From an uncultured Acidobacteriota bacterium (GTDB taxonomy: Bacteria; Acidobacteriota; Vicinamibacteria; Vicinamibacterales; UBA2999): a stretch of 64,000 nt of DNA. Below the pieces are notes generated by a model. That model saw only the letters and a program-made list of their open reading frames with translations. It ran no database searches and was not told the DNA's origin. The stretch's first letter is position 1. The number at the start of each line of letters is the position of its first letter. The DNA lies in assembly GCA_963707825.1 (NCBI GenBank), contig CAVPRP010000009.1, positions 154,602 to 218,601 on the forward strand. The letters are read 5' to 3'. This document shows positions 14,875-46,925 of this stretch, one piece after another. The position numbers were made by a program, and so were the translations under genes.

Positions 14875-17145
14875 CTACTTGAGCGCCTCCAACTGCTGTC
14901 GTGCGGGCGCGAACTGTGGGTCGATCTCCAGCGCGCGGCGGAAGGCGGTCTCGGCTTCGGCGCGTTTGTTCTGTCGCGCCAGGGCCAGGCCGAGGTTGAA
15001 GGCATACTGCGCGTTCGTGCCGTCGCGCGTGTTGGCTTCACGAAACGCCTGCTCGCCGGCCGCGAGGTCGCCGTTCCCCGCGAGAATCATCCCCAGCGAG
15101 TTCCAGTACGACGCGGTGCCCGGATCGAGCTGCACCGCTTCGCGAAGCAGCCGCGCCGCGTCGGCCGCGCGGCCGAGGTCGCGGTACAGCTCGCCCAGCT
15201 TCACCCGCACCAGTGCATCCTTCGGGGCCAGCTGCGCCACGCGCTCGTAGGCGCGCACGGCGGCGACCGGGTCGTCCATCCGCCGCGCCACGTCGCCTTC
15301 GCGCTCGATCAGCCGCGGGTCATCGGGCGCCACCTTCAAGCCGCGCCGCACCGCCTCGAGCGCCAGGTTCGGCTTGCCATCCGCCAGATGCACTTCGGCC
15401 AGGCCGATGTAGGCGGCGGTGTAGGCCGGCAGCTTCTGCAACGCCCCTTCGTAGTGCGTCGCCGCCTCGCGCCAGCGCTTGAGGCCGACCAGCGCGCGCG
15501 CAGCGTAGTAGTGCGCCTCGAAGCTGTCGATGCCCCTCGCAAACAGCTGCTGGAACCCGGCGTAGCTGGCGGCGAACCGGCCTTCGCGCAGGTTGACCAG
15601 CCCCTCGCGCATCAGCGTGTTGACGATCTGGTACTCCTCGATCTTGTCCTTCGGATCGGCGCCGGACGCACGAGATGCCGCCGGTCCGGACGAACTGACG
15701 TAACCAAGCGCGCCCAGCTTCTCGAGCAGATCGGCGGGGACCGAGGCGGCGGCCGGCCCGGTGTCGCGCAGCAGGGCCTGCTCTTCACGGAGGCGCTGCT
15801 CGATGCCCGATCGATACGCGCGGGCGCGTTGCGGCTCCTTGTCGATCAGGTTCTGCCGCTCGTGGGGGTCCTGTCCCAGGTCGTACAACTCCGGACGCGG
15901 CGCGAGGATGTACTTCCATTGGCCGTCGCGGACCGCGCGCAGGTCGCTCCATCCGTAATGGACCAGCGGCACCAGCGACTCGGCAAACGTCGGCTCCTCG
16001 TCCTGCGGCGTGCCACGTAGCGCCCCGGCCAGCGATCGACCGGACACCTTCGGCGTCTTCGCCGCCAGCCCGAGCAGGTCGAGCACGGTCGGCATGACGT
16101 CAACGTTGCGCGTCACCGCCTTCAGCCTGGTGCCGGGCCTAATCCCGGGCCCGCGCATCAGCAGCGGCACGGCGAGCGTGGACTCGTAGACGAAGAAGCC
16201 GTGCACCGCTTCCTTGTGCTCGTCGAGGCCCTCGCCGTGATCGGACGTGACGATGAGGAGCGTGTCGTCGCGAAGCTTTGCCGACGCCAGGGCCGCGTCG
16301 AGCCGGCCCACCAGTTCGTCGGACCACGCCACTTCCCCGTCGTAGGGACGTCCGGCGTACTTCGTCGCGTATGGCTCCGGCGGTTCGTAGGGATCGTGCG
16401 GATCGTATAGATGGACCCACGCAAACCGCCGGTCCGCACCCGCGGCACCCAGCCACGCCGTCGCCTCCGCCACCGTGGCGTCGCCGCGCTTCTGAATCGT
16501 GTTGAGGAAGCGGGCATCGTCCTCGCCGATGTCGAACTTGTCCGAGTAGTCGGCGAACCCGCGCGCCAGCCCGGACTGCCGCGACAGGACGATCGACGAG
16601 ACGAACGCCGCGGTCTTGAACCCGTTCTGCTGGAGGATCTCCGCCAGCACCGGCACCTTGCCGCCGAGCGGCGGCGAGACGTTGTCACGAATGCCATGCT
16701 CGGCCGGATAGAGCCCGGTGAAGAGCGAAATGTGGGACGGCCGCGTCAGCGGCACGTGCACCGAAGCGTGTTCGGCCATCGCGCCTTCCGAGGCCAGGCG
16801 ATCCAGGTTCGGCGTCGCGACCGTCGTGTTGCCATAGACGCCGAGACGATCGGCCCGCAGCGTGTCGATGGTGACGATCACCACGTGCTTCGGCACGCGA
16901 GCCGCGGCGGGCGGGCCGGACGGCGCCGACGAGCCGCACGCGGCGACGCTCAGGAGGACAGCCACCACCGCGGCCGCAAGCAGGGGGACGCGGCTGGCGG
17001 CTCGGCTTGCGTCTTGAGTCTTGGGTCTTGGGTCTTGGGGCTGTGCCGGCTGCCGGCTGCCGGCTGCCGTTTTGCCTTCTGCCTTGTGCCTTTTGCCTTC
17101 TGTCTTCCGTCTGCCGTCTGCCGCCTGCCGTCTGCCGATACTCAC
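14875..17145 (-). CDS. Sulfatase-fold (alkaline-phosphatase superfamily) + TPR lipoprotein, paralog 1
   Basis: Motifs: IDTLRADRLGVYG, VPLTRPSHISLFTGLYPAEHGIRDN, SDHGEGLDEHKE, lipobox LLSVAAC, and a C-terminal TPR-like region. The only canonical start upstream of the lipobox is GTG 17145 (GTGA overlap with the upstream stop). That start would translate repeat locus 3. The alternative is CTG ~16983. Confidence 0.8.
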   Translation of the reverse strand: MSIGRRQAADGRRKTEGKRHKAEGKTAAGSRQPAQPQDPRPKTQDASRAASRVPLLAAAVVAVLLSVAACGSSAPSGPPAAARVPKHVVIVTIDTLRADRLGVYGNTTVATPNLDRLASEGAMAEHASVHVPLTRPSHISLFTGLYPAEHGIRDNVSPPLGGKVPVLAEILQQNGFKTAAFVSSIVLSRQSGLARGFADYSDKFDIGEDDARFLNTIQKRGDATVAEATAWLGAAGADRRFAWVHLYDPHDPYEPPEPYATKYAGRPYDGEVAWSDELVGRLDAALASAKLRDDTLLIVTSDHGEGLDEHKEAVHGFFVYESTLAVPLLMRGPGIRPGTRLKAVTRNVDVMPTVLDLLGLAAKTPKVSGRSLAGALRGTPQDEEPTFAESLVPLVHYGWSDLRAVRDGQWKYILAPRPELYDLGQDPHERQNLIDKEPQRARAYRSGIEQRLREEQALLRDTGPAAASVPADLLEKLGALGYVSSSGPAASRASGADPKDKIEEYQIVNTLMREGLVNLREGRFAASYAGFQQLFARGIDSFEAHYYAARALVGLKRWREAATHYEGALQKLPAYTAAYIGLAEVHLADGKPNLALEAVRRGLKVAPDDPRLIEREGDVARRMDDPVAAVRAYERVAQLAPKDALVRVKLGELYRDLGRAADAARLLREAVQLDPGTASYWNSLGMILAGNGDLAAGEQAFREANTRDGTNAQYAFNLGLALARQNKRAEAETAFRRALEIDPQFAPARQQLEALK
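17008..17138 (-). repeat. Heptanucleotide tandem-repeat mosaic, locus 3 (inverted relative to locus 2)
   Basis: Plus strand reads GTCTTG[A/G] x4, GGCTGCC x3, TTGCCTT-type x5 and GTCTGCC-type x4. These are the reverse complements of CCAAGAC, GGCAGCC, AAGGCAA and GGCAGAC. Confidence 0.9.
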
Positions 17146-19439
17146 TGCCTCCCCCCAGCCAGCCGTTCGGCGCGCTGCCCGGCCGCGACGTGACGCTGTG
17201 CCTCGGCCTCGCGCCCCAGCCGCGAGTAGACATCGGCCAGCACGTAATGGCCGAGCGGCGCCATCGCGGGGTCTGGCGCGGAGGCGAGTCCCTTCACGGC
17301 GGCCTGTTCGGCCTCTTTCAAATCACCGGCGTCGAGCGCTGCCTTGGCGAGGTACAGGTAACCGGTGCCGAAGTCCGGCTTCTTCTCGACGGCGGCGCGA
17401 TAGTGAGCCAGCGCCTCTCCCGCGCGTCCCGTCTTCGACAGCAGCTTCGCAAGGTTGAACTCCGGCTGGAACAGCTTCGGGCTGCGGGCGATCTCGGCTT
17501 CGTACGCGGCCATCGCGGCCGGCAGGTTTTCGCGGACCTCGTACACCAGGCCGAGATCGTAATGCGCCATGGCCTGGTCGCCCTTGGCCGCAATCGCCTC
17601 GGTCAGCGCCTTCTCCGCCGCATCGAACTGCTTGAGTTCGATGCGCGCTTCGCCCAGCTTCACGAGAAAGGCCGCGCGATCGGCGTCGAGCGTCAGTCCT
17701 TTCTCGAGGAGGGCCGCTGCCTCGGCGAACTGGCCCTTCTCCATCGACAACTCCGCCAGCTGATACAGCGGCTTGGCACCGCGGGGATTCAGCTGCATCA
17801 CCCGTTCGAACCCGGCCCGCGCCTCGTCGTCTTTGCCGGCGGTGCGATAGGCGAGCGCCAGGCTCCACGCCGCGCCCTCGTGCTCGGGATCGACGGCGAG
17901 CGCTCGCTGATAGGCCGCAATCGCGTCCGCCGGACGGCCGGCCTTGGTGTGCATGTTGCCGAGCATGGTGAACGCTTCGATCACTTCCGGATCGGCGGCG
18001 AGCACTTCGCGCACCTTCGCAATGCCGTCATCGAGCTTGCCATCGACGGAATCCTGGGCGGCGCGCTTCAGCAGGTTGTAGAGACCGATCTTGTCCTTGG
18101 GATCGCCGCGCGGCTTGTCGGCCATCGCCGCGCGCGTGACGCCGGAGGCGACGTAGCCAAGCGCGCGCAGTTGCTGCTCGACGGCCGGATCCACCGCGCG
18201 TGGCTGCTGCGGCACCGCCTGCGCCGCGGTCTTGCCGGCCATGTCGCGCAGGCCCCGTTCGAGCGCGTCGGCCATGCGCGGGTTCTCGGCGGAGAGGTCC
18301 TTCAACTCGCCGGGATCGGCCTGGATGTCGTAGAGCTCTCGACGTGGCGCGGCGATGAACTTGAAGCGGCCGTCGCGCACCGCGGTCAATTCGCTCCACC
18401 CGTAGTGATAACGCGGATACCAGGTCTCGCTGAACGCCAGCAGGTCCAGCGGCTCGCCGCGCCCCATCGGCACCAGGCTCGTCCCCTGCACGGCGGCCGG
18501 CACCTCCGCCCCTACGAGATCCAGGATCGTCGGCATCACATCCACGATGCGCACCTGCTCGCGCACCGCGCGCGCCGGGACGTCTGGACCGGCGACGATC
18601 AGCGGAATCCGAACCGCTGCGTCGTAGACGAAAAAGCCGTGCTGCTGCTCGCCGTGCTCGCCCAGCATCTCACCGTGATCGCCGACCACGACGACGATGG
18701 TGGAAGCCAGCCGTCCACTGGCCTCGAGGGACGCCAGCAGGCGGCCGACCTGCGCGTCGGTGGCCGCGACCTCGCCGTCGTAGGCTCCTTGCGCCGTCGC
18801 GGGAAATTGCGAGCGATAGGGTTCCGGCGGTTCGTACGGTCCGTGCGGATCGTAAAGGTGCACCCACGCGAAGAACGGTTGGGTGGTGTCCTTCTCGAGC
18901 CACGCCAGCGCGTGATCGACCACCTCGCGGCCCGGCCGCTGGGCCGCATCGAGGCCGCCGGCCATCTCGAATTTCGACAAGTCGAACTGGTCGAAGTACT
19001 CGCTGAACCCCTGCGCGATGCCCCAGCGCCGGTCCAATACGAACGCGCCGACGAATCCACCGGTCCGGTAGCCGCGCGGCTGCAGCACCTCGGCCAGCGT
19101 GGTCAGCGAGTCGTCCAGGTAGAACGCGCCGTTGTCGCGCACGCCGTGGAAGGCGGGGAACGTGCCCGTCATCAGCGAGCTGTGCGCGGGCAGGGTGAGC
19201 GGCACCACCGTCGCCGCCTGTTCGAAGCGCAGGCCGCGCGCCGCCAGCGCGTCGAGCACCGGCGTCGCCGCCGCCTTGTAGCCGTAGCTGCCGAGTCGAT
19301 CGGCTCGCAGAGTATCGATACTGATGAGGAGGACCGACTTGGCCCCCGAGGCGCGTCCCCCCACCCATCCACGCTGCGCGGCGTACCAGACCGCCGCAAG
19401 CGCCGCCACCATCACGGCGGCGGCAATCACCTTCCGCAT
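17142..19439 (-). CDS. Sulfatase-fold + TPR protein, paralog 2
   Basis: Intact 765-aa ORF. Motifs: ISIDTLRADRLGSYG, VPLTLPAHSSLMTGTFPAFHGVRDNG, GDHGEMLGEHGE, and a long C-terminal TPR region. Confidence 0.85.
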   Translation of the reverse strand: MRKVIAAAVMVAALAAVWYAAQRGWVGGRASGAKSVLLISIDTLRADRLGSYGYKAAATPVLDALAARGLRFEQAATVVPLTLPAHSSLMTGTFPAFHGVRDNGAFYLDDSLTTLAEVLQPRGYRTGGFVGAFVLDRRWGIAQGFSEYFDQFDLSKFEMAGGLDAAQRPGREVVDHALAWLEKDTTQPFFAWVHLYDPHGPYEPPEPYRSQFPATAQGAYDGEVAATDAQVGRLLASLEASGRLASTIVVVVGDHGEMLGEHGEQQHGFFVYDAAVRIPLIVAGPDVPARAVREQVRIVDVMPTILDLVGAEVPAAVQGTSLVPMGRGEPLDLLAFSETWYPRYHYGWSELTAVRDGRFKFIAAPRRELYDIQADPGELKDLSAENPRMADALERGLRDMAGKTAAQAVPQQPRAVDPAVEQQLRALGYVASGVTRAAMADKPRGDPKDKIGLYNLLKRAAQDSVDGKLDDGIAKVREVLAADPEVIEAFTMLGNMHTKAGRPADAIAAYQRALAVDPEHEGAAWSLALAYRTAGKDDEARAGFERVMQLNPRGAKPLYQLAELSMEKGQFAEAAALLEKGLTLDADRAAFLVKLGEARIELKQFDAAEKALTEAIAAKGDQAMAHYDLGLVYEVRENLPAAMAAYEAEIARSPKLFQPEFNLAKLLSKTGRAGEALAHYRAAVEKKPDFGTGYLYLAKAALDAGDLKEAEQAAVKGLASAPDPAMAPLGHYVLADVYSRLGREAEAQRHVAAGQRAERLAGGRQ

Positions 19440-28765: not shown

Positions 28766-31712
28766 ATGTCAACGATGCGGCGAGCCGTGTGGCTCCTGGC
28801 GTTGTTCCTACTCACCAGCGTCTCGGCATCGGCGCAGCAGACGACCGGCACCATTGTCGGTCGCGTGCTCGATGACCAGGGCGCGGCCATTCCCGGCGCC
28901 ACGGTCATCGCCTCGAGTGCCTCGACCGGCTTCACGCGCGAAGCGATCTCGCGATGCCGAAGGCGTCTACCGCCTGAACGCGCTGCCGGTCGGCCGCTAC
29001 GACCTGACGGTCGAGCTCGCCGGCTTCAGCCAGCGTCGAACGCAAGGACGTCGTCGTCAACGTCGGCCAGACGATCACGCTCGACTTCACGCTGCAAGCG
29101 TGGCGACCGTCGCGGAGACGATCACCGTCACCGCCGCAGGCGCCGCTGATCGAGTCGTCGGTGTCGTCGGTCGGCGGCGTCGTCGACATCGGCCGCATCG
29201 AGAGCATTCCGCTCAACGGCCGCCAGTTCGCGAACCTCGCCGCGACGCTGCCCGGCGTCGGCCTCGGCAACCACTCCGATCCGACCAAGAGCACGCAGTA
29301 CTCGCCGCAGATCAACGGCGGCAACGGCCGCAACGTGAACTACCAGATCGACGGCGGCGACAACAACGACGACACCGTCGGCGGCCTGCTGCAGCTGTTC
29401 CCGCTCGAGGCGATCCAGGAATTCAACTTCGTCACCTCGCGCGTCGAAGGCCGAGAACGGCCGCAGCAACGGCGGCGTGATGAACATCGTCACCAAGAGC
29501 GGCACCAACAACGCTCCGCGGCAGCTTCTTCACGCTGTTCCGCGACGATTCGATGAACGCGAAGACGACCACCGAGAAGAACAACAACAGCGACAAGCAG
29601 GACTACCGCCGCTACCAGTACGGCGGCAGCTTCGGCGGCCCGATCGTCAAGGACAAGGTCGCACTACTTCGGCGCGGTCGAGCGCACGCAGCAGGACACC
29701 TTCCAGGTCGGTGTCAACACGAGGGTCTGTTCCCGGCGCAAGACGGCACCTACGCCACGCCGTATCGCGAGACGCTGCTGAACGTGAAGGTGACCGCCAA
29801 CATCACCCCGAGCCAGTACCTGTCGGTTCGCTACGGCCGCAACCAGAACTCGCAGCCGTACGGCGCCGACGTCGAACCGCGCGCCGAGCAACTGGGGCGA
29901 CAGCACCAACGACGTTCAACTCGATCAACCTGAACCACAACTGGGTGCTCGGCGGCACCAAGCTGAACGAGTTCATCTTCCAGTACGCCGACTTCGCCGA
30001 ACGACATCACGGCGCGCAGCCACGATCCCTACCAGATCTTCCCGAACGGCGTGGCCGTCGGGCAGAGCCCGAACACGCCGCAGACCACGCGAGCAGAAGA
30101 AGTGGCAGTTCCGCGACGACTTCTCGTGGCACCTCACCGGCAAGGGCGGCGTCGGCCACGACTTCAAGACCGGCGTGAACTTCATCAACGAGCCGACGCC
30201 TGTACATCAGTTCAACACGCGGCAAGGGCGTCGTGCAGTACACCCACCTGACCGACAACGTCGAACGGACCGATTTCGACGGTCACCCTCAACGACGGCG
30301 ACGCGTCGGCCAACATCCCGCTGAAGCAGTACGCGTTCTTCGTCCAGGACGACTGGGCGGTGAACGACAAGCTGACGCTGAACGTCGGCCTGCGCTACGA
30401 CCTGATCGACGGCTACCAGTTCGACCAGTCGAAGAACCCGAACTTCGTCAAGATGCAGGACGCCGGCCGCGCCGGGCAGCTCACCGGCATCAAGGGCCTG
30501 GAGAACTTCGGCCAGGATCCCGAAGGACGACACCAACAACTGGCAGCCGCGCCTCGGGCTTCGCCTACGACGTGCGCGGCAACGGCAAGGACGTGATCCG
30601 CGGCGGCTGGGGCATCTACATGGACATGGCCTACACCAACTCGAACGCGCTGTTCGCGGCCAGCGACGCCACCGGCAAGGGCTTCGGCGCCGTGCTGTCG
30701 GTCGACAACCAGCCGGGCATTCGCAACCCGGACGGCACGCTTCTACCAGGCCGGCCAGCCGCTGTCGAACATCGCGAGCCAGAACCAGTCGAATCCGAAC
30801 GCGCTGCCGCTGTTCGGCCAGTTCACCGATCCGCGCCTGCAGATGCCGTACACGCGGCAGACCTCGCTCGGCTGGTCGCACGAGCTGTCGCCGAGCACCG
30901 TGTTCACGGCCGACTTCGTCCGCGCCGACGGCCGCGACCTCAACGTCCGGCCGCGCATCAACACGCGCATCATCCCGAACGGCGCCGCGCGTGCTGGCGT
31001 TCCTGAACCTCGCTGCCCAACGCGATCGGCACGCGGCCGGCGATCAGCCGCGGCGAGAGCGAAGTACACCGCGCTCATCACCGGCGTCAAGCGCCGCATG
31101 ACGAACAACATCGATTTCGCGGTCACCTACACGCTGGCCGAAGCGCGCAGCCAGATCGGCACGGCGTCCGACGAGCTGAACGCCAACCTGCTGCAGGACG
31201 CCGACGCTGCTGTACGACGACCCGCGCGTCTACGGCCCGACGTCGCGCACCGATGCGCGGCACTCGGGCTCGCTCGTCGATGGTCTGGCTGGTGAAGGGC
31301 TTCACCATCGCGCCGACCTACTTCTACCGTTCGCCGCTGCCGGTGCAGACCATCACGGGCGTCGACGCCAACCTCAACGGCGAGAACAACGACCTGCCGG
31401 AGCGCGCCTACCAGTTCACGGACGTCGGCCAGGCGCCGGAGGACATCGGCGCGTGCGAGACCTGGAACTGCAGCCGCGGCGCGTGGCGCACGCAGATGAA
31501 CCTGCGCGTCTCGCATGGCTTCGGCCTGGGCGGGCAGCGCGCGCATCGAGGCGATTGCCGAGGTGTTCAACCTGCTGAACGCCAAGAACCCGAACTTCAC
31601 CATCGTCAACAACCAGACGAGCGCGCTGTTCATGCAGCCCGACGCGTTCGCGGGTGACTTCCAGCAGCGCGAACAGCGCGTCGGCCAGATCGGCTTCCGC
31701 TTCTCGTTCTAG
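28766..31712 (+). pseudogene. TonB-dependent receptor with carboxypeptidase-regulatory-like domain (paralog 2); about 25 frame changes
   Basis: Starts MSTMRRAVWLLALFLLTSVSASAQQTTGTIVGRVLDDQGAAIPGATV. Recognisable receptor blocks hop between all three frames: IESIPLNGRQFANL, GVMNIVTKSGTNN, DKLTLNVGLRYD, GWGIYMDMAYT, VFNLLNAKNPNF. The gene ends ...QIGFRFSF*. Confidence 0.8.
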
Positions 31713-35559: not shown

Positions 35560-35669
35560 TCGCGCGCCGACGGATGCGCCCCGCGGCCGGGGACCATCCG
35601 GAACACGTATAATCCGGGCACGCCCGGGGTGGCATTCGACCCCTCCCGGCGCGTCCTGGAGGATTCGTG

Positions 35670-36314
35670 ATGACGAAGCATGTGAAGGGACGCCGGCAGC
35701 TGATGACCGGCCTGGGTGTGACTGCGACTGCCGTGGCACTGGGCGCGGCATCGATCGACGCGCAGTCGCCGGCCGGCACGTTCGCGCCCGCCCGCCACGA
35801 GCCCGACGAGTGGATGGGGAAGCTGCCCGGCAAGCACCGGGTCGTCCTCGACGTCACGTCGCCTGCCGGAATCCCCGATGCCATCCGCTTCACCGGCAAT
35901 CTCTTCACCGGCAACAAGACCGGCTACGGCGTGGACGAGGCGGACGTGGCCATCATCATGGTGCTGCGACACTCCGCCACGGCCTATGGCTACACCGACG
36001 CCATCTGGTCGAAGTACGGCAAGTCGATGGCCAGCGGTGGCGACCCCGCCGCGCCGCCGCCGACAACTAACAGTTTCAACACCGGCGATCGCATGCAGCT
36101 GGCGGATCTCGCCAAGCGGGGCGTGCGCTTCATGGTCTGCGGCACCGCCAGCCGCGGACTGTCGCGCCGCATCGCCGGCCAGACGGCCGATGCGGATGCG
36201 GTCTTGAAGGAAATGGAAGCCAACCTCATTCCGAGCGCGCGCCTCGTCGCGGCGGGCGTGGTGGGTGTGACCCACGCGCAGGAGTACGGCTTCAGCCTGT
36301 TGTTCGTCGGATAA
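35670..36314 (+). CDS. Tat-signal DsrE/DsrF-like family protein
   Basis: GGAGGA lies 7 nt before the ATG. Twin-arginine signal GRRQLMTGLGV. Motifs: KHRVVLDVTS, GVRFMVCGTA, and the C-terminal QEYGFSLLFVG. The pattern fits COG1416-type DsrE-like proteins from memory. Confidence 0.5.
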   Translation: MTKHVKGRRQLMTGLGVTATAVALGAASIDAQSPAGTFAPARHEPDEWMGKLPGKHRVVLDVTSPAGIPDAIRFTGNLFTGNKTGYGVDEADVAIIMVLRHSATAYGYTDAIWSKYGKSMASGGDPAAPPPTTNSFNTGDRMQLADLAKRGVRFMVCGTASRGLSRRIAGQTADADAVLKEMEANLIPSARLVAAGVVGVTHAQEYGFSLLFVG

Positions 36315-36410
36315 GGCGCCTCCTTCGCGGTCAGTGACGGGAGGGCGCCGCGCGCCAGCCGTCGTGTGATTTGTGCCTCATGTGAACCCGATGTCTCCGA
36401 GGAGTTGTCC

Positions 36411-37109
36411 ATGCATGACACCAGCACGCACCCCCGTCGCGGCTTCCTCGCCGGATTGTTCGGCGTGGCGGCAGCCGCCAGTCTGCCCTCCGTCGCGGCC
36501 GCACAAGTTGGTGGCGGCGACGCCTGGATCAAGGAAGTGCCGGGGAAATACCGGTGCTTCTTCGACTGCCCGCAGCACATGAACGGCTTCGGGCTGTTGC
36601 ACGTCCTCAACTATCTGTCGACCTACGCGGCCACCGGCGCCGCCGCCGGCCAGGCCGGCGCGGTGAGCTCGTTCTACAGCGTCGGCTCCGCCTCCAGCAT
36701 CGGCCTTGGATTCAACGACGCGATGTGGGCGAAGTACGGGCTCGGTGAATACCTGGGGCTGAAGGATGCGAGCGGGAAGCCGTACACGCGGAACGTGTTC
36801 GCCAGTCCGACCAAGGAAGATGGCCACCTGCTGACCCAGCGGATTCAGATGCCCCTGATCCCGATGGCTGGCGAGGCCATGACGGGCCTGGCGATTCCCA
36901 ACCTGCAGAAGATGGGCACCAAGTTCCTGCTGTGCGACAACGCGCTCGGCTTGTGGACGCTGGAACTCGAAGCCAAGGGCAAGGGCGCCGCGGCGGCGAT
37001 CGGCAAGGACCTGCGCGCCAACCTGCTGCCCGGTGTCACGATCGTGCCGGCGATGGTCATCGCGATCCAGCAGGCGCAGGCCGCGGGCATTTCGTACAAC
37101 AGGCAGTGA
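36411..37109 (+). CDS. Tat-signal protein, possibly a distant DsrE-like paralog of the preceding gene
   Basis: GAGGAG RBS and twin-arginine signal PRRGFLAGLFGVAAAAS. Motifs: GKYRCFFDC, GTKFLLCDNA, and the C-terminal QAAGISYNRQ. Architecture parallels the preceding gene. Confidence 0.4.
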   Translation: MHDTSTHPRRGFLAGLFGVAAAASLPSVAAAQVGGGDAWIKEVPGKYRCFFDCPQHMNGFGLLHVLNYLSTYAATGAAAGQAGAVSSFYSVGSASSIGLGFNDAMWAKYGLGEYLGLKDASGKPYTRNVFASPTKEDGHLLTQRIQMPLIPMAGEAMTGLAIPNLQKMGTKFLLCDNALGLWTLELEAKGKGAAAAIGKDLRANLLPGVTIVPAMVIAIQQAQAAGISYNRQ

Positions 37110-37149
37110 CGATTCGTTCGTCCGTGGTTTCGATGGTCAAGGAGGCAGC

Positions 37150-38241
37150 ATGAAGAAGTCGATCGGCGTACTCGCGGTCCTGGCGCTCGCCAGCCCGTGG
37201 ATGGCCGCCGCCCAAACACCCACCGCCGAGGCGCAGATCACCGAGGCCGTCTCGATCCTGCCCGACGATCTGCGCGCCGGGGCCACCGTGGTCACCTACG
37301 ACGCGACCACCGGCGAACGCAAGGTGCTCCGGCAGGGCACGAACTTCCTCGAGTGCCAGCCGAAGATGGCCGACGGATTCGAGCGCTGCTACCACAAGGC
37401 GTTCGGGCCGCGCCGCGATCTCGAGGCCAAGCTCACCGCGCAGAAGAAGTCCGAGAAGGAAGTCAGCGAGGCCGTCGCCGCCGCGCAGAAGGCCGGGACC
37501 CTTCCAGCGCCGCCGCCGGGGATGATGTCCTACCGCGGCTACGACAAGCGCGATCGCATCCAGAACCTCTGGGTCTGGTCGCAGCCCAACGCGACGCCGG
37601 AGCAGATTGGCGTCTCGACCACCAGCCAGCGCGACAACGCGCTCGAAGGGCACGGGCTGCCCTGGATGATGCTGCCCGGCACCCCGGGCTCGCACATCAT
37701 GATCCCGATCAACCCGACGCCCAAGACCTCGTCGATCACCGACGAAGCGGCAGATGAAATCACCCAGGCGACGCTGCCGTTGCCGGAGGACCTGCGCGCG
37801 GGCGCGGCGGTCTACAAGTACGATCCGAAGACCGGCGATCGCATCGCGCTGCGCCCGGGCACCAACGCCCTCGAGTGCATGCCACGCGGGGCGGACGGCT
37901 TCACCTGGTGCTACAACAAGGTCAGCGCGCCCCGCCGCGACATGTCAGCCAAGCTCAGGGCGCAGGGCGCGGACGACAAGGCGATCCAACTCGCGGTCGA
38001 GGAGGCCACCAAGGCCGGGACCCTCAAGCCGACGCCGTTCGGCACGATGTCGTACCGGCTCTATGGCAAGCGCGATCGCATCCAGTTGCTGTGGGTCCTG
38101 TCGGTGCCGGGCGCCACGCCGGACACGATCGGCGTGACGACGGCAAGCGCGCGTGAGGACGCGCTGGAACTGCGCGGGACGCCGTGGCTGATGCTGCCCG
38201 GAACACCCGGAGCGCACATCATGATCCCGATCAACAAGTAG
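37150..38241 (+). CDS. Secreted protein of unknown function built from two ~175-aa internal repeats
   Basis: AAGGAGG RBS and signal peptide MKKSIGVLAVLALASPWMAAAQ. Both halves share LP(D/E)DLRAGA, GTNxLEC..(10)..C, MSYR.Y.KRDRIQ.LWV, and PW(M/L)MLPGTPG(S/A)HIMIPIN. Confidence 0.6.
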   Translation: MKKSIGVLAVLALASPWMAAAQTPTAEAQITEAVSILPDDLRAGATVVTYDATTGERKVLRQGTNFLECQPKMADGFERCYHKAFGPRRDLEAKLTAQKKSEKEVSEAVAAAQKAGTLPAPPPGMMSYRGYDKRDRIQNLWVWSQPNATPEQIGVSTTSQRDNALEGHGLPWMMLPGTPGSHIMIPINPTPKTSSITDEAADEITQATLPLPEDLRAGAAVYKYDPKTGDRIALRPGTNALECMPRGADGFTWCYNKVSAPRRDMSAKLRAQGADDKAIQLAVEEATKAGTLKPTPFGTMSYRLYGKRDRIQLLWVLSVPGATPDTIGVTTASAREDALELRGTPWLMLPGTPGAHIMIPINK

Positions 38242-38275
38242 GCGGTCCGGTCTGGCATTACGCGCTTCTGCTCCA

Positions 38276-39676
38276 TTGGTCGAGACGCGGCTCGTGCACG
38301 CGCACGGTCTCGCGTCGCTCGTCACCCTGCTCGTCTCGGCCACCTTCGGGATCATCGTTTCGCTGCAATTGCTGATGCCCGATCTCGGGCAGGACGTGGC
38401 GTGGCTCGGCTGGGGCCGGCTGCGCTACGCCCATACGCAGGGCATCATGCTGGGTTGGCTGGGGAACGCGTTCCTCGCGTTCCTCTACCACGGCGTCCCG
38501 CTCCTCACCGGCCAACCCGTCACCAGCCGCCGCCTCGGCCTCTGGCTGTTCGGGCTGTGGAACTTCGCGGTGATGCTGCCCGGATGGATCCTGGTGCTCT
38601 CCGGCGTCAGCCAGCCGCTCGAGTGGGCCGAGTTCCCGCTCGTGGTGGACGTCTTCGTCATGGTGGGGATGGTGATGGCCGCGGTGCAGTTCCTGCCGTC
38701 GTTCTTCACCCGCGGGCTGGAATCGCTCTACGTCTCCAGCTGGTACATCCTCGGCGGCCTGGTGTTCACCATGCTCGCCTACCCGATGGGCAACATCGTG
38801 CCCGAGTTGATCCCCGGCGCCAGCGGCGCGGCCTTCAGCGGGCTCTGGATTCACGATGCGATCGGATTGTTCGTCACGCCGCTCGCGCTCGCGGTCATCT
38901 ACTTCGTCATCCCGGCGTCCACCGGCCGGCCGATCTACAGCCACTTCCTGTCGATGCTGGGGTTCTGGCTGCTGTTCTTCCTGTATCCGCTGAACGGCAC
39001 GCACCACTACGTGTTCTCCGTGATTCCGATGGCGGCGCAGATCGGCGCGATCACGGCCTCGACCCTGCTGGGCGTGGACGTGATCATCGTCATCACCAAC
39101 CTGTTCCTGTCGCTGCGCGGCGCCGGCTATGTCGCGCGCGATCCCGCGCTGCGATTCGTCGCCACCGGCACGCTGTTCTACTTCATCGTCAGCATGCAGG
39201 GCGCCGCGCAGGCGCAGATGGCCGTGAATCAGGCGGTGCACTTCACCGACTGGGTGATCGGCCACTCGCACCTGGCGATGCTCGGCTTCGCCACGTTCTC
39301 GGCGGCCGGCGGGCTGGTCCACGTGTGGCAACGCATCCCGTGGGCGCGCTACAACGCGCGCGCCATCGAGTGGTCCTACTGGCTGCTGGTCGTGGGCCTG
39401 GTGGTGATGGTGTCGGACCTGACCATTGCCGGCCTGGTCCAGGGACAGCTGTGGACCTCGGGCGCGCCGTGGATCGAGTCGGTGAAGGCGACGCGGCCGT
39501 ACTGGATCGTGCGCTCGCTGTCGGCGATTCCGCTGGCCGCCGGCTTCATCTCGCTGCTGGCAGGCCTCACCACCGGCCCTCGCGGCGCCGGCCTGCACGC
39601 CATCGATTCCCGCATCGGCGCGGAGCCCGTGCCGGCGATCGCGCCCGGCCTCGCCACTCCCGTGGAGGTCGCATGA
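38276..39676 (+). CDS. ccoN: C-family (cbb3-type) haem-copper oxidase catalytic subunit
   Basis: Motifs: RLRYAHTQG (haem b His), GLWIHDAIG (CuB His), LYPLNGTHHY (Tyr six residues before HH, the cbb3 cross-link position), and VIGHSHLAMLG (HxH). The TTG start at 38276 is uncertain. Confidence 0.8.
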   Translation: MVETRLVHAHGLASLVTLLVSATFGIIVSLQLLMPDLGQDVAWLGWGRLRYAHTQGIMLGWLGNAFLAFLYHGVPLLTGQPVTSRRLGLWLFGLWNFAVMLPGWILVLSGVSQPLEWAEFPLVVDVFVMVGMVMAAVQFLPSFFTRGLESLYVSSWYILGGLVFTMLAYPMGNIVPELIPGASGAAFSGLWIHDAIGLFVTPLALAVIYFVIPASTGRPIYSHFLSMLGFWLLFFLYPLNGTHHYVFSVIPMAAQIGAITASTLLGVDVIIVITNLFLSLRGAGYVARDPALRFVATGTLFYFIVSMQGAAQAQMAVNQAVHFTDWVIGHSHLAMLGFATFSAAGGLVHVWQRIPWARYNARAIEWSYWLLVVGLVVMVSDLTIAGLVQGQLWTSGAPWIESVKATRPYWIVRSLSAIPLAAGFISLLAGLTTGPRGAGLHAIDSRIGAEPVPAIAPGLATPVEVA

Positions 39677-40921
39677 GCGCCCAGCCACAGCGTGCGCTGC
39701 GCATGGCCTACGTAGTGGCGAGCGTCGCCGGCGTCGCGTTCTTCGTGATGTCGGTCGTGCTCCTGGGGGTGTGGCCCAAGCGCGTGCTCGACGAGCAGAC
39801 CCGGCTGATGTCGCCGGAGAAGCCGCTCGGGCTGAGTGCCAGCGCCCGGCGCGGGCGCGCCATCTACAGCCGCGAAGGCTGCGCCTACTGCCACACCCAG
39901 CAGATTCGCTACCTGCACTCCGACATGCAGCGGTTCGGCGCCCCGACGCTGGCCTGGGAGACGCGCCTCGACTACCCGCACCTGTGGGGCACGCGGCGCA
40001 TCGGGCCCGACCTGACGCGGGCCGGCGGTACGCGCGCCAGCGACTGGCAATACACGCACCTGTTCTCGCCGCGCGCCGTGGTCCCCGATTCGGTGATGCC
40101 GCCGTATCGCGCGTTGTTCGACGGCTCGCCCGATCGCCCCCGTCAGGAAGCCCTCGATCTCGTCACCTACCTCGACACGCTGGGGCGGGCGCGCGAACTG
40201 GCCGGCCCGGAGGGCGAGGCCCACGCGCGCGAGGCCTGCAACTGCCCCGATGACGAGATGGCGCAGATGGCGTTCGGAGCGCCGCTGAACGCGAGCGCCT
40301 CACGCACCCGCCGGACACACGAAGCGCCGGCGCTGCCGCCGGCCAACGACCTGGCGCGCGGGCAACAGCTTTACGCGCGCCACTGCGCGACGTGTCACGG
40401 CGCGAGTGGCGAAGGGAGACGGACCGGGCGGGACCGCCCTGCTGCCCGTCCCTACCAACCTGGCGGCCCACGACTACTCGCTGACCCGATTGTCCGACGT
40501 GCTCTGGAACGGCGTGGACGGCACCGCGATGCCCGCGTGGCGGGCCCACGCCGCGGAGGATCGGGCGGCGATTGCGCAGGCGGTGCGGGCGCTGCGGGCC
40601 CGCGACGTCGCCGAACCAGCGTTGCCCGAGCACCTGCTCGAAATCGGCCAGCGCGTCTACGCCGCCAACTGTCAGCAGTGCCACGGCGAGCGCGGCGACG
40701 GCAGCGGAACGGCTGCTCAGTCGCTGCCGGTGGCGCCGGTCAGCTTCAGGCGGCAACGGCCGACCTTGCCCGAGAGCCTGCGCGTGCTGCGGAACGGCAT
40801 CGAGGGCACGTCCATGGCGCCATGGACGTCGCGCCTGTCGGACGCGGAGCTCGTCGCGGTGGCACACTATGTACGGAGCTTCTATGCGGGCGAGGCCGCC
40901 CCGGGAGACACCGGCCGATGA
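39673..40921 (+). pseudogene. ccoO: Fused CcoO-like monohaem plus CcoP-like dihaem cytochrome c subunit (three CxxCH); one frame change near 40417
   Basis: ATGA overlap with the ccoN stop. Motifs: GRAIYSREGCAYCHTQQIR, PHLWGTRRIGPDLTRAG, then CATCHGASGEG / (frame change) DGPGGTALLPVPTNL..GVDGTAMPAW, and CQQCHGERGDG..GIEGTSMAPW. Confidence 0.75.
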
Positions 40922-41103
40922 TCACCGACCTCATCGTTCTGGCCTCCGTGCTGTTCACGGTGGCGTTCATCGCCGCGTGGGCCGTGTCACCGGCCCTGCG
41001 TGCCTGGATCGAGCGGCCGAAGCACCGCTTCCACGATCAGACGACCGGCTACGACCGGTCGCAGCAGCGTGACGCCGAGGCCCGGCAGGAGCAGGTGTCG
41101 TGA
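40918..41103 (+). CDS. Small single-pass membrane protein in the CcoQ-like position
   Basis: ATGA overlap with the upstream stop. 61 aa with the N-terminal helix MITDLIVLASVLFTVAFIAAWAV. Confidence 0.45.
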   Translation: MITDLIVLASVLFTVAFIAAWAVSPALRAWIERPKHRFHDQTTGYDRSQQRDAEARQEQVS

Positions 41104-42098
41104 CCGATCTCGAGCCTCGCCCGGACTCCGGGGGATTCACCGTCGTCATTGCGGTCTCGCTGGTCGTTGGCGCGCTGGTCGTCGGCGCCGCGCTCTACGG
41201 CGTGCCCGGAGCGTCGCCGTTGCGCCCGCGCACCGCGGAAGGTGATGCGCCCGCGCGCGTGGTGCCGGCCAACGCTACCGAGGAGTACGGCCGGCGGCTG
41301 ATTGCCCACACCGCCGAACTGCTCGGCCAGGATCATCTGGATCCGGAGCGACGCTACATCAACAGCCGGCTGAACTGCGGCTCGTGCCATCTGGCCACGG
41401 GCACCGAGCCCGGGACGCTCACGCTGCTCCAGACCGACGAGCACTACCCGCGCTTCTCGGGCCGCGCCGGCACCCAGACCGACATCGAGGATCGCATCAA
41501 CGAGTGCATGACGCGCAGCATGAACGGCAAGCCGCTGCCGATGGACAGCCCCGAGATGATGGCAATGGCCGCCTACCTCCGGTCGCTCGGCTCGCAGTAC
41601 GACGCGATGGGCGCGTCGCTCAAGAAAGCCGAGGAGCCGGCGCCGTTCAAGACCCCGGCGCGGGCCGCCGACCTAGCCAAGGGGCAGGAGGTCTACGGGA
41701 CGCGCTGCGCGCAGTGCCATGGCAACGACGGCCTGGGACTGCTGGCCACGACCAGCCGCAGCCAGGGGTACCTGTTCCCGCCGCTGTGGGGACCGGACAG
41801 CTTCAACACCGGCGCCGGCATGCACCGCGTTCTGACCGCCGCGCGCTTCATCAAGGCGCGCATGCCGCTTGGCCAGGCAACGCTCACGGACGAAGAGGCG
41901 TTCGACGTCTCGGCGTTCATCAACTCCCAGCCGCGGCCGGCGATGGCAAATCTCGAGCACGACTATCCGGACAAGGCCACCAAGCCGGTGGACAATCCCT
42001 ACGGGCCTTACGCCGACGACTTCAGCGAGGAGCAGCACCGGTTCGGGCCGTTCCAGCCGATCGAGGAACACTACAAGGCGCTGAAGAAGACGAAGTAG
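41100..42098 (+). CDS. Membrane-anchored dihaem cytochrome c, TsdA (thiosulfate dehydrogenase)-like
   Basis: GTGA overlap with the upstream stop. N-terminal helix FTVVIAVSLVVGALVVGAALYG. Motifs: CGSCH and CAQCH, RINECMTRSMNG, and YLFPPLWGPDSFNTGAGM, as in COG3258/TsdA-type cytochromes (from memory). Confidence 0.6.
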   Translation: MTDLEPRPDSGGFTVVIAVSLVVGALVVGAALYGVPGASPLRPRTAEGDAPARVVPANATEEYGRRLIAHTAELLGQDHLDPERRYINSRLNCGSCHLATGTEPGTLTLLQTDEHYPRFSGRAGTQTDIEDRINECMTRSMNGKPLPMDSPEMMAMAAYLRSLGSQYDAMGASLKKAEEPAPFKTPARAADLAKGQEVYGTRCAQCHGNDGLGLLATTSRSQGYLFPPLWGPDSFNTGAGMHRVLTAARFIKARMPLGQATLTDEEAFDVSAFINSQPRPAMANLEHDYPDKATKPVDNPYGPYADDFSEEQHRFGPFQPIEEHYKALKKTK

Positions 42099-42107
42099 CG
42101 ACGGTCG

Positions 42108-42713
42108 TCAGCGCTTCGCCGCGTGGCGGCGGGTGCCGCCCGCCGCAGCGGGCCGGCTTCTGCGGGCGGGCGATGAACGCGGTGGCGTGTCCCGGGCCGG
42201 TGCGCCCGTCGCGATCCACGCCTCCAGCACCGGCAGCATCCTGAACAATCCCTCGCGGACCGCGGCCACGTGCCGCGAGCCGATTCGTTCGGCGAGCGCT
42301 GCCTCGTAGAACGCCAGCACGTCGTGCCCGTGGGTATATGCCGCCGCGCCGGCCACGGTGAGGCGCACCAGCCGTGCCCGCCCATCCGCGGGATCGATCA
42401 CCAGCTCCACGAACTTCAGCCGCTCCAACTCGCGCAGCGCCTGCCCCACCGCCTGCTTACTGACATCGACCCGCCGGGCGAGCTCGGTCGGCCTGACGCC
42501 GTCGCGCGAGAGGTGCGGCAGCAGCCGCACCAGCGCCGGGGTCAGCAGCCGCCGGCCGGCTTCGCGGTTCACCTCGGCCTGGGCCACCTCGTCGAGCAGG
42601 CGGGCGCACTCGAACAGCAGCGGCCCGAGGCCGGAGGACGACGGCGGCTGGCTCGACGGCGAGGCGAGGCGGGGCACGCGCCGATCATTCCCGAGGCTCT
42701 GGTAATTAGTCAA
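42108..42713 (-). CDS. MarR-family transcriptional regulator
   Basis: Winged-helix segment VRPTELARRVDVSKQAVGQALRELERLKFVELV..DGRARLVRLT. The start is uncertain: TTG 42713, or an internal GTG near 42678. Confidence 0.8.
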   Translation of the reverse strand: MTNYQSLGNDRRVPRLASPSSQPPSSSGLGPLLFECARLLDEVAQAEVNREAGRRLLTPALVRLLPHLSRDGVRPTELARRVDVSKQAVGQALRELERLKFVELVIDPADGRARLVRLTVAGAAAYTHGHDVLAFYEAALAERIGSRHVAAVREGLFRMLPVLEAWIATGAPARDTPPRSSPARRSRPAAAGGTRRHAAKR

Positions 42714-45668: not shown

Positions 45669-46925
45669 GTGCCGCTGAACCTCACTGACGGCGATTCAAG
45701 CCTGCTCCACGGCGAGGCGGGCGCCACGGCGGCGGCGGCGATGCAGGTGCTCGCGGCGTTCTCGCGTGCCGTCGGCGCCGAGCGGCTGCTGGACATCTCG
45801 CGGGCGCACATCGACGGCTGTCTCTATCACGGCCAGGCCAGCCTGGACTTCGCCGAGCGGCTGACCGCGGGAGGCGGCCGCGTCCGGGTGCCCACCACGC
45901 TGAACGTCGGCTCGATAGACCTGATCCATCCGGAGCTGATCCGCTTGTCGCCGGCGCAGGCGGCGCCCGGGAAGCGGCTGATGCAGGCGCACCTGGCGCT
46001 CGGGTGCGAGCCCTCGTTCACGTGCGCGCCCTATCAAACGCGCTTCCGTCCGGTCGTTCGGCGAACAGATCGCATGGGGCGAGTCGAACGCGATCGTGTT
46101 CGCGAATTCGGTGATCGGCGCGCGCACCAACCGCTACGGCGACTTCATCGATCTGTGCTGCGCGCTCACCGGCCGGGCGCCGGCATGGGGGCTGCACCTC
46201 GACGGGCCTCGCCGGGGACAACTGCTGTTCCGGCTGCAAGGCTTCGGCGACTCGCCCACGCCCACCGACGCGCTGTTCGTCGCGATCGGCCTGATCATCG
46301 GTTCGCGGAGCGGCGATCGCATTCCCGTGATCGAAGGGTTGCCGATGCCGCTCCACGAGGACCAGCTGAAAGGCATGGGCGCGGCCGCGGCCTCGTCCGG
46401 CTCGGTCGCCCTCTTTCATGCGGTCGGCATCACCCGGAGGCGCCGACGCTGGGCGACGCGCTCGGTGGCGGCACGCCCGACGACACGCAGGTCATCACCC
46501 CGGCGGATGTGGCACGCGCGCTGGAATCGCTCTCCACGGTCCCCGCCGGAACCGCGATCACGGCGGTCTGCCTCGGCACGCCGCACTTCTCGCTGGAGGA
46601 ATGGGATCGGCTGCTGCCGCTCTTGAGGGCCGAGGCGCCGTCACGCGGCATTCCCGTCTACGTCAACACCGGCCGGGCGACACTGCGGCAGCTGGAACTG
46701 GATGGGCGCATCGACGGCGCACGCGAGCTCGGTGTGATCCCGGTGGTGGACACCTGCACCTACCTCACGCCCATCCTCGAGCGGCTCGATGGCGCGGTGA
46801 TGACCAACTCCGGCAAGTGGGCGCACTACGCGCCCGGCAACATCGGCGTGCAGGTGGCGTTCGGCTCGCTCGAAGACTGTGTCCGGTCCGCCGCGGAAGG
46901 CCGCGTCACCCGGGTGGCGACATGA
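45669..46925 (+). pseudogene. Aconitase X catalytic (large, DUF521) subunit; two frame changes (~46050, ~46432)
   Basis: Motifs: ISRAHIDGCLYHG, CAPYQ, then [29 protein letters not shown] in the second frame, then back to the first. At 46432 ACCCGG has three Cs where four are needed to read GITPEAPTLG. Confidence 0.75.

Follow-up and report, generated by a model that had tools for sequence, protein, structure and literature searches.

What would a terminal oxidase do with a dihaem cytochrome of the TsdA type encoded at the end of its own operon? This question is raised by a seven-gene cluster in a stretch of 64,000 nucleotides (nts) of contig CAVPRP010000009.1, from an uncultured soil acidobacterium of the order Vicinamibacterales; hereafter, the whole of this stretch is called the window. 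The cluster consists of two genes for small exported proteins (g1 and g2), a gene for a duplicated periplasmic protein (g3), the cbb3-type oxidase genes ccoN and ccoOP, a small-subunit gene and a tsdA-like gene. We consider it, with a probability of roughly 0.6, to be a self-contained periplasm-facing thiosulfate:oxygen oxidoreductase module. An earlier note, made from the letters of the window, had already suggested that the operon passes electrons from a sulfur compound to O2, and this reading is supported by the gene context, the conserved residues and the conserved linkage described below, with the function itself still a prediction.

The tsdA-like gene (41100-42098, + strand) encodes a membrane-anchored TsdA-type dihaem cytochrome c of 332 amino acids (aa). 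When its product was compared with the PDB sequences, it matched TsdA (4WQ7, E=5.6e-41 over ~200 residues) and TsdBA (5LO9, E=1.3e-28, residues 66-306 of the window protein), and the values for SoxA (1H31) and cytochrome c4 were E=1.9e-6 and E=0.0096, respectively. The SoxA/TsdA domain PF21342 was matched at 48.4 bits (E=9.6e-13), above its gathering score of 27, and the second domain of the protein is an ordinary cytochrome c domain of class I (PF13442, E=1.6e-13) that weakly resembles CcoP. The motifs CGSCH, CAQCH, INECMTRSMNG and FPPLWGPDSFNTGAGM, from which TsdA rather than a generic cytochrome c4/c5 had been proposed, were all found, and the proposal agrees with both the PDB comparison and the domain score.

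The alignment with TsdA of A. vinosum (AvTsdA) placed His53, Arg82, Arg92, Cys96, Ser100, His164 and Met209 of that enzyme at H97, R122, R132, C136, S140, H207 and M255 of the window protein. Mutagenesis and structures have defined Arg82(109), Arg92(119) and Ser100(127) as the thiosulfate pocket of TsdA, and the cysteine that forms the S-thiosulfonate (Av Cys96, Cj Cys138, where Cj denotes Campylobacter jejuni) is the sixth ligand of catalytic haem 1 (PMC4423706). According to the same study, Arg119 (Arg92 in the numbering used here) is invariant in the TsdA family, and Ser100/Ser127, a residue that SoxA lacks and all TsdAs have, stabilises the second thiosulfate as it attacks (PMC4423706). 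The Met ligand of haem 2 (Av Met209, Cj Met255) is strictly conserved in TsdAs, and the preceding position varies (PMC5146829). The catalytic residues of the present clade were first seen to be invariant in 14 homologues and then in 83 from two phyla, where C93/C96/H97, R122, R132, C136, S140, C203/C206/H207, M255 and R243 were all without exception. On this alignment, the TsdA-type active site is under strong purifying selection, and by every sequence criterion tried the dihaem cytochrome is a genuine member of the TsdA family; it would be expected to act as a thiosulfate:acceptor oxidoreductase forming tetrathionate.

The N-terminus of the protein carries a hydrophobic 19-mer (Kyte-Doolittle hydropathy 2.64) behind an acidic n-region, and is therefore read as a membrane anchor and not as a typical signal peptide, in agreement with the previous description of an anchor in place of a cleavable signal. 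A hydrophobic N-terminus was present in 80 of the 83 homologues, with a linker of 10-62 aa, and the C-terminal extension of ~50 aa was strongly conserved among the 83 (D288-Y325).

The catalytic subunit of the oxidase, with 466 aa, is encoded by ccoN (38276-39676, +; TTG start uncertain) and belongs to a divergent haem-copper oxidase of the C family (cbb3). The product of ccoN matched PF00115 (E=1.5e-59) and CcoN of P. stutzeri (3MK7_A, E=1.3e-42), and alignment with the latter showed equivalents of His60, His207, Tyr251, His257, His258, His345 and His347. All of the haem and CuB histidines are thus present, together with the cbb3 Tyr six residues before HH, just as had been noticed before. 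The next gene, ccoOP (39673-40921, +), encodes CcoO fused to a dihaem CcoP-like domain, with three CxxCH motifs in all and a length of 415 aa once the frame is repaired as described below. FixO (PF02433, E=1.9e-37) was found on 39673-40420, and Cytochrome_CBB3 (E=6.2e-17) and TIGR00782 ccoP (E=3.9e-11) on 40406-40921, so that a monohaem CcoO part is followed by two further CxxCH cytochrome c domains resembling CcoP. The scores for ccoN, ccoO and ccoP were far under the NCBIfam equivalog cut-offs (177 versus 583 for TIGR00780, 115 versus 201 for TIGR00781 and 43 versus 180 for TIGR00782), indicating a divergent subfamily of C-family oxidases and not the canonical proteobacterial enzyme.

Between ccoOP and the tsdA-like gene lies the gene for a 61-aa single-helix membrane protein (40918-41103, +). 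It resembles CcoQ in operon position and single-helix architecture only, and the comparison with Pfam and NCBIfam gave no match even at E up to 10, without similarity to FixQ/CcoQ. The protein was found in 62 of 67 loci and carries a post-helix motif, P..LR.WIE.PKH.F.D....YD, in which E32, P34, K35 and F38 are conserved at 95% or more. This cytoplasmic, highly conserved motif matches no known family in the 62 loci, and it may serve to define the oxidase subfamily.

The seven same-strand genes with ATGA, ATGA and GTGA overlaps that the earlier note had listed are present at 35667/35670-42098 (+). The junction sequences place ATGA between ccoN and ccoOP, ATGA between ccoOP and the small-subunit gene, and GTGA between the latter and the tsdA-like gene, and these overlaps couple the last four genes translationally. 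The gaps among the first four genes are 96, 40 and 34 nts, and Shine-Dalgarno-like sites precede g1, g2 and g3.

The linkage of the two systems was then followed in relatives. A scan of one genome per species gave 470 TsdA-like relatives, the best 80 of these 470 loci were taken, and five more loci were added by exact-protein look-ups. Adjacency was counted in the 67 non-redundant loci with at least 3 kilobases (kb) of upstream sequence, and neighbours were counted in 55 well-flanked loci. ccoOP was directly upstream of the tsdA-like gene in 65/67 loci, with the small subunit between them in the conserved order ccoN-ccoOP-small subunit-tsdA, and ccoN was likewise present in 65/67. These loci belong to Acidobacteriota (Vicinamibacterales and Bryobacteraceae/Solibacteraceae/Terriglobia) and to Gammaproteobacteria (Woeseiaceae, Pseudohongiella, SAR86 and Steroidobacteraceae); their GC content lies between 41 and 73%, and no relationship exists between the genes that flank the different loci. 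The gene linkage, on which the first reading had depended, is therefore conserved in relatives of two phyla, and the cluster recurs in more than 80 species. In addition, when pairwise identities were correlated, r was 0.87 for TsdA with CcoOP and 0.86 for CcoN with CcoOP, and by this measure the TsdA-like protein and CcoOP co-evolve as closely as the two oxidase subunits do.

Four loci were exceptions to the linkage, namely L029 and L043 (apparent deletions), L047 (insertion) and L066 (divergent ccoN). In L029 (8257-9577), ccoN is missing and g1, cut down to its first half, runs directly into ccoOP at residue 83, and in L043 (8933-9969) only short remnants of ccoN and ccoOP are left between g1 and the small subunit. 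The two apparent deletions are independent, and the tsdA-like gene is unbroken in both.

The two genes at the head of the operon encode haem-free proteins without a CxxCH motif. g1 (35667-36314, +; start GTG at 35667 or ATG at 35670) encodes a Tat-exported DsrE-fold protein of 215 aa, and g2 (36411-37109, +) its Tat-exported paralogue of 232 aa, ~25% identical to g1. Both carry the RR motif of the twin-arginine translocation (Tat) pathway (PRRGFLAGL in g2), and the RR pair is invariant in the family, so the Tat signals reported for the two small proteins are borne out. Their designation as DsrE-like stood in part. No match to PF02635 was obtained with g1 or g2 at E up to 10, and the Pfam field was empty for all 120 homologues. 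However, when the AlphaFold2 model of g1 (predicted local distance difference test score, pLDDT, 81) was submitted to Foldseek, the only structures returned were 2PD2 (ST0148, E=8e-6) and 1L1S (MTH1491, E=1e-4), with a template-modelling score (TM, by target) of 0.78. We take these two to be DsrE-like structures of the COG1416 type. The profile of the g1 family also aligned by hhalign (probability 89%, E=2.3e-6) with a PF02635-positive periplasmic family that occurs in some of the related loci, with the Cys of the VCG motif in register. This residue, Cys158 of g1, is conserved in 96% of 77 family members and is located at a strand-helix junction. g2, which is limited to a subset of the Vicinamibacterales loci, aligns within the g1 family and has the invariant Cys in FLLCDNA. 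Thus, the fold and the profile favour the DsrE-like call, and the Pfam family does not.

A second relationship of the family was found through the NCBIfam model NF052225, which describes the thiosulfate dehydrogenase (TSD) of Acidithiobacillus. The scores were 19.2 bits for g1 (E=6e-4) and 34.6 bits for g2 (E=1.2e-8) against a cut-off of 300; 26 of 30 members of the g1/g2 family matched the model, the distant ones reaching 52 bits (E=5e-14). TSD (AFE_0042) is a Tat-signal protein of ~25 kDa that forms tetrathionate from thiosulfate and is encoded in the doxDA cluster (PMC6335251, PMC2754497). By this one model, through which the homology was traced, the g1/g2 family is a distant homologue of TSD and not an orthologue. 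A profile search of 1.8 billion proteins did not return the Acidithiobacillus TSD among the 150 matches listed, all of which were closer family members; grouped at 50% identity, the g1/g2 family falls into about 1,470 clusters.

All-against-all clustering of the neighbouring open reading frames (ORFs) showed which other genes recur. Among the 55 well-flanked loci, the g1/g2 family was present in 45, g3 in 23 (both phyla), a PF02635 DsrE protein in 6, a periplasmic two-domain rhodanese in 7 (mostly loci of Bryobacteraceae without g1) and the sulfite exporter TauE in 4 (6/82 loci overall), and at least one of the g1 family, PF02635 DsrE and a periplasmic rhodanese was found in 52/55. A chance neighbourhood was considered for g1 and g3 and rejected, as both recur on either side of the module, on either strand and in two phyla. 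Nine loci of Bryobacteraceae/Terriglobia (L037, L038, L039, L041, L045, L046, L048, L079 and L085) are without g1 and g3, and a two-domain rhodanese with a signal peptide (PF00581, E=1.4e-33) adjoins the cluster in these, as if it stood in for a sulfur-handling protein of the g1 type. A third, Sec-signal protein of the DsrE family (179 aa, PF02635 E=7.9e-12; L002 11064-11603) is encoded directly downstream of the tsdA-like gene in L002, L007, L008, L009 and L011; in L032, L060, L078 and L081 its gene has another position within the locus. In L005, a SorAB-like pair (molybdopterin oxidoreductase and cytochrome c) lies upstream on the opposite strand.

The remaining gene, g3 (37150-38241, +), encodes a Sec-signal periplasmic protein of 363 aa. 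It consists of two homologous domains of ~170 aa, which confirms the duplicated domain noted earlier; the protein is single-domain in some Gammaproteobacteria. Neither Pfam, NCBIfam nor the PDB sequences, including a profile search, gave a match to g3, and the AlphaFold2 model (pLDDT 85) found no match in PDB by Foldseek (best E=0.12); its homologues are all labelled 'hypothetical protein'. Invariant features are a Cys pair (Cys-x10-Cys) and W172-x-M174...H182-x-M184, repeated as W346/M348/H356/M358, and each repeat ends in an invariant PW(M/L)MLPGTPGxHIMIPIN on a predicted beta-hairpin (residues 172-184 and 346-358). The W-x-M...H-x-M set of ligands recalls the periplasmic Cu(I) sites of the CusF type, which is only an idea drawn from analogy, and g3 may be an accessory protein, perhaps a Cu(I) chaperone for CuB.

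From these gene identities, conserved catalytic residues and the linkage across the phyla, we infer which substrate is used, in which direction the reaction runs, that the cytochrome docks on the oxidase, and what g1, g2 and g3 do. The membrane-tethered TsdA-type cytochrome would oxidise two thiosulfate to tetrathionate at the His/Cys haem 1, with a cysteine S-thiosulfonate as the intermediate, as is the case for TsdA of A. vinosum, and the two electrons would exit by the His/Met haem 2. They would then enter the fused CcoO-CcoP protein at its dihaem CcoP-like domain and continue, by way of CcoO haem c and CcoN haem b, to haem b3-CuB, where O2 would be reduced. The N-terminal helix, the flexible linker, the C-terminal extension and the 61-aa subunit may hold the dehydrogenase at the oxidase. 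g1 and g2 would handle thiosulfate, tetrathionate or sulfane sulfur through the single conserved Cys; they may serve as carriers, or else form a second thiosulfate dehydrogenase that has no haem. The midpoint potential of the thiosulfate/tetrathionate couple is +198 mV (PMC9562282). At this potential the couple can feed the respiratory chain only at the level of cytochrome c, and a dedicated oxidase would therefore be the only energy-conserving outlet. A fuller version of this scheme, which we regard as unlikely, would make the TsdA-like protein a stoichiometric, tethered catalytic subunit of a distinct cbb3 subfamily, a 'thiosulfate oxidase', with g1/g2 as cysteine carriers and g3, by its W-x-M...H-x-M site and as a protein of new fold, as Cu(I) chaperone. 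In such a version, a new Sox-independent periplasmic pathway would exist in which g1/g2 accept thiosulfonate or sulfane sulfur, either directly from TsdA or out of tetrathionate, to be processed further, and horizontal transfer would have carried the module between abundant Acidobacteriota of soils and Gammaproteobacteria of marine habitats (Woeseiaceae, SAR86 and Pseudohongiella).

The state of ccoOP in the window bears on whether such a chain could be complete. The earlier note had reported a CcoO-CcoP fusion without reporting that the gene is not one open frame there: a 1-nt insertion in the G-run GAAGGGAGAC (40411-40414, +) breaks the reading frame, with a +1 shift after CATCHGASGEG, at about 40412-40414. 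At this site the window reads GGCGAAGGGAGACGG, whereas two close relatives, L001 (a 94%-identical 1-megabase contig, ena:ERZ25039510 contig_7961) and L086 (an independent short-read contig with a 95% identical TsdA), read GGCGAAGGAGACGG and GGCGAGGGGAACGG, respectively, each 1 nt shorter and in frame. In the G-run itself, GAAGGGAGAC of the window stands against GAAGGAGAC of L001, and the one-base-shorter form of 40408-40417 would be GAAGGAGAC or GAAGGGGAC. Dropping one base from the window sequence results in the 415-aa product. The fusion is unbroken in L002 (413 aa) and L003 (439 aa), the copy in L005 is split by gene calling, and a single tblastn match spans the CcoO and CcoP domains in most loci, where the fused product generally has about 400-415 aa. 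Consequently, the fusion as such holds in relatives and after the repair, and the open frame does not hold in the window.

Other genes of the window are damaged in a similar way. The gene for AcnX, or aconitase X (45669-46925), is a 418-aa ORF with the middle third in the wrong frame, with indels at about 46056 and 46434; compared with L001 there is one base extra and then one base missing, and the true sequence lies in the ORF 46096-46626. At about 29477-31712 (+), a TonB-dependent-receptor-like outer-membrane gene is broken up into five or more ORFs that overlap and lie in different + frames, with the typical C-terminal ...GQIGFRFSF at the end, representing further apparent indel damage. An alignment of 20 kb between the window and L001 contains 94 gaps, and L001 has ~15 single-base insertions in ccoN and ccoOP alone (7000-9700), where its gene calls are fragmentary. 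L001 is noisier even than the window, so that neither sequence alone is trustworthy for reading frames. Because the ccoOP frameshift is absent from two close relatives and other indels occur in the window, we attribute it to an assembly error; it is probably long-read assembly noise and not a real recent mutation. Programmed frameshifting in ccoOP was considered as well and rejected, since neither the two close relatives nor any other locus needs such a shift to be read in frame.

Several observations weigh against a thiosulfate:oxygen module. The ccoOP frame is broken in the window, and the docking of the TsdA-like protein on the oxidase is suggested by gene order only. L029 and L043 keep the tsdA-like gene without most of the oxidase genes, so the cytochrome may work without the oxidase. 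The g1 family is missing from about 10 of the 55 loci, and neither a tetrathionate-consuming enzyme within 10 kb of the module nor, in the window, other sulfur-oxidation genes were found, the gene content of the latter being otherwise heterotrophic. The residue before the Met ligand is Arg in this clade, compared with Lys208 in AvTsdA and Asn in C. jejuni, which makes the protein an uncharacterised TsdA variant. In addition, TsdA enzymes are bidirectional, with the direction set by the haem 2 environment, and CjTsdA is biased toward reduction (PMC5146829).

These points can be fitted to other explanations in varying degree. With regard to the frameshift, it is improbable that the locus is dead in this organism, with a real mutation in ccoOP and the operon a decaying pseudogene cluster. 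The +1 frameshift is carried by the gene, and L029 and L043 lost oxidase genes independently while keeping the tsdA-like gene; nevertheless, the remaining six genes are unbroken in the window, the insertion sits in a short G-run, single-base indels are also found in housekeeping-type genes (two in AcnX, and the fragmented outer-membrane receptor), and 94 gaps in 20 kb relative to a 94%-identical contig are a signature of long-read assembly noise. The lack of other sulfur-oxidation genes and the class I cytochrome c nature of the second domain, with its weak similarity to CcoP, would also suit a TsdA-like protein that is a mere electron-entry or relay subunit of a general-purpose cbb3 oxidase, with the DsrE-like genes as passengers. 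Anchor and linker form a tethered-carrier architecture comparable to that of the membrane-anchored cytochrome cy. Yet the Cys ligand, the two Arg and the Ser are invariant across two phyla, which is unexpected without selection for catalysis, and 52/55 loci have sulfur-handling neighbours. Low-potential His/Cys haems are, moreover, poor relays to an oxidase. Such haems lie several hundred mV below the +198 mV couple (PMC9562282), which again counts against a relay, and we judge this explanation to be quite unlikely.

Alternatively, the electrons may still go to the cbb3 oxidase and the sulfur chemistry may differ. In a Sox-like form, the TsdA-like cytochrome would attach thiosulfate, or transfer the Cys-thiosulfonate, to the DsrE/TSD-like cysteine; in another form, polysulfide, a polythionate or sulfite would be the substrate instead of simple production of free tetrathionate. 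Such chemistry is suggested by the near-invariant Cys of the g1 family at the strand-helix junction, aligned with the DsrE Cys, by the neighbours in 52/55 loci, and by the mechanism that TsdA shares with SoxA, since SoxAX conjugates thiosulfate to a carrier Cys (PMC4423706). The TauE and SorAB-like genes of some loci also point this way. The explanation is opposed by the TsdA-specific Ser (Ser100/Ser127), which SoxA lacks and which is invariant in the clade, by the loci without the g1 family, and by the failure to see a SoxB-like hydrolase within 10 kb of the module, and taken together the two forms appear unlikely. It is very improbable that the protein is a tetrathionate reductase, as in C. 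jejuni, drawing on the cytochrome c pool, with its place beside the oxidase reflecting a shared pool and not donation to O2. The bidirectional nature of TsdA, the bias of CjTsdA and the absence of Lys before the Met ligand are in line with such a role, but an anaerobic electron acceptor would hardly be expected to share an operon so strictly with an oxygen reductase and to co-evolve with it, and the host taxa are for the most part aerobic heterotrophs of soils and the sea. For these reasons we prefer thiosulfate oxidation coupled to O2 as the predicted function of the module.

We next compared the predicted thiosulfate:oxygen module with systems already described. As in A. vinosum TsdA (4WQ7/4V2K), the cytochrome is a two-domain dihaem protein with a His/Cys haem, the Arg82/Arg92/Ser100 pocket, and Met209 as the ligand of haem 2. 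The A. vinosum enzyme is a soluble periplasmic protein and has HiPIP, an iron-sulfur protein of high potential, as partner (PMC6879331), whereas the window protein has a membrane helix, a linker and a C-terminal extension, is encoded inside a cbb3 operon and has Arg for Lys208. The characterised partners of TsdA are HiPIP (PMC6879331), TsdB or a monohaem cytochrome. The TsdB-TsdA fusion of Marichromatium purpuratum (5LO9) and the tsdB-tsdA pairs are similar in that TsdA is hard-wired to a dedicated c-type acceptor. Their acceptor is the soluble dihaem TsdB, fused or adjacent, and the presumed acceptor here is the CcoP-like domain, joined through the operon and a membrane tether.

The oxidase shares with canonical CcoNOQP (P. 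stutzeri 3MK7; Rhodobacter) the CcoN ligands, the cross-link Tyr, a monohaem CcoO, a dihaem CcoP and a small single-helix subunit. It differs in that this small subunit has no FixQ/CcoQ similarity and in a fifth gene, which encodes the catalytic cytochrome; furthermore, since CcoO and CcoP form one polypeptide, CcoP has no helix of its own. With TSD of A. ferrooxidans (tsd-doxDA-rhd cluster), the g1/g2 family has in common the Tat signal, the periplasmic location, the lack of haem and a gene beside a membrane-bound thiosulfate-oxidising system. However, its scores are 19-52 bits against 300 (NF052225 E of 1e-8 to 5e-14), the neighbouring system is TsdA-cbb3 and not DoxDA, a quinone reductase, and the hosts are neutrophilic heterotrophs and not acidophiles. 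A donor-oxidising enzyme is assembled with its own oxidase in the A. ferrooxidans rus operon (cyc2-cyc1-coxBACD-rus) and in the sulfide oxidase-oxygen reductase supercomplex of Aquifex aeolicus, and the same design principle is seen in Acidianus, where DoxDA is found with an aa3 oxidase. These systems use other donors (Fe2+, sulfide), A- or B-type oxidases and unrelated donor-side proteins, and to our knowledge none of them joins TsdA to a C-family oxidase.

Downstream of the operon, only 9 nts separate the tsdA-like gene from a convergent gene for a MarR-family regulator (42108-42713, -). The closest relatives, L001 and L087, have this regulator gene too and more distant loci do not, and its product may be a lineage-specific regulator. 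A scan of the sequences flanking the operon gave no sigma-70-like promoter and no convincing terminator, a scan that is uninformative for an acidobacterium of 68% GC. Elsewhere in the window (14875-19439, -) lies a tandem pair of genes whose products each join a sulfatase domain (E about 1e-45) to a long TPR region, an unusual architecture with no relation to the operon.

Surveys of metagenomes record tsdA in genomes by the thousand and take it for a soluble thiosulfate dehydrogenase whose electron outlet is unknown (e.g. PMC12345210), and they are silent on gene context. No description of the tsdA-cbb3 operon arrangement was found in the searchable full-text literature; the component families are known, and this combination of TsdA, a C-family oxidase and DsrE/TSD-like proteins appears to be new. 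It marks a clade in which the cytochrome is accompanied by an oxygen reductase of its own, a membrane tether and proteins for sulfur handling, with TsdA-like relatives in at least 470 species-level genomes, among them Vicinamibacterales, Bryobacteraceae, Woeseiaceae, SAR86 and Pseudohongiella, and it flags g3 as an uncharacterised periplasmic family without a Foldseek match. If the predicted function is true, the poorly understood Acidithiobacillus TSD/DsrE-like family would be tied to a second thiosulfate system, and a natural cbb3 oxidase with an added substrate-oxidising subunit would be at hand for structural work. The module is widespread in environmentally abundant bacteria of two phyla; it would provide organisms regarded as plain heterotrophs with an energy-conserving route from thiosulfate to tetrathionate, and would thereby have a bearing on cryptic sulfur cycling in soils and sediments.

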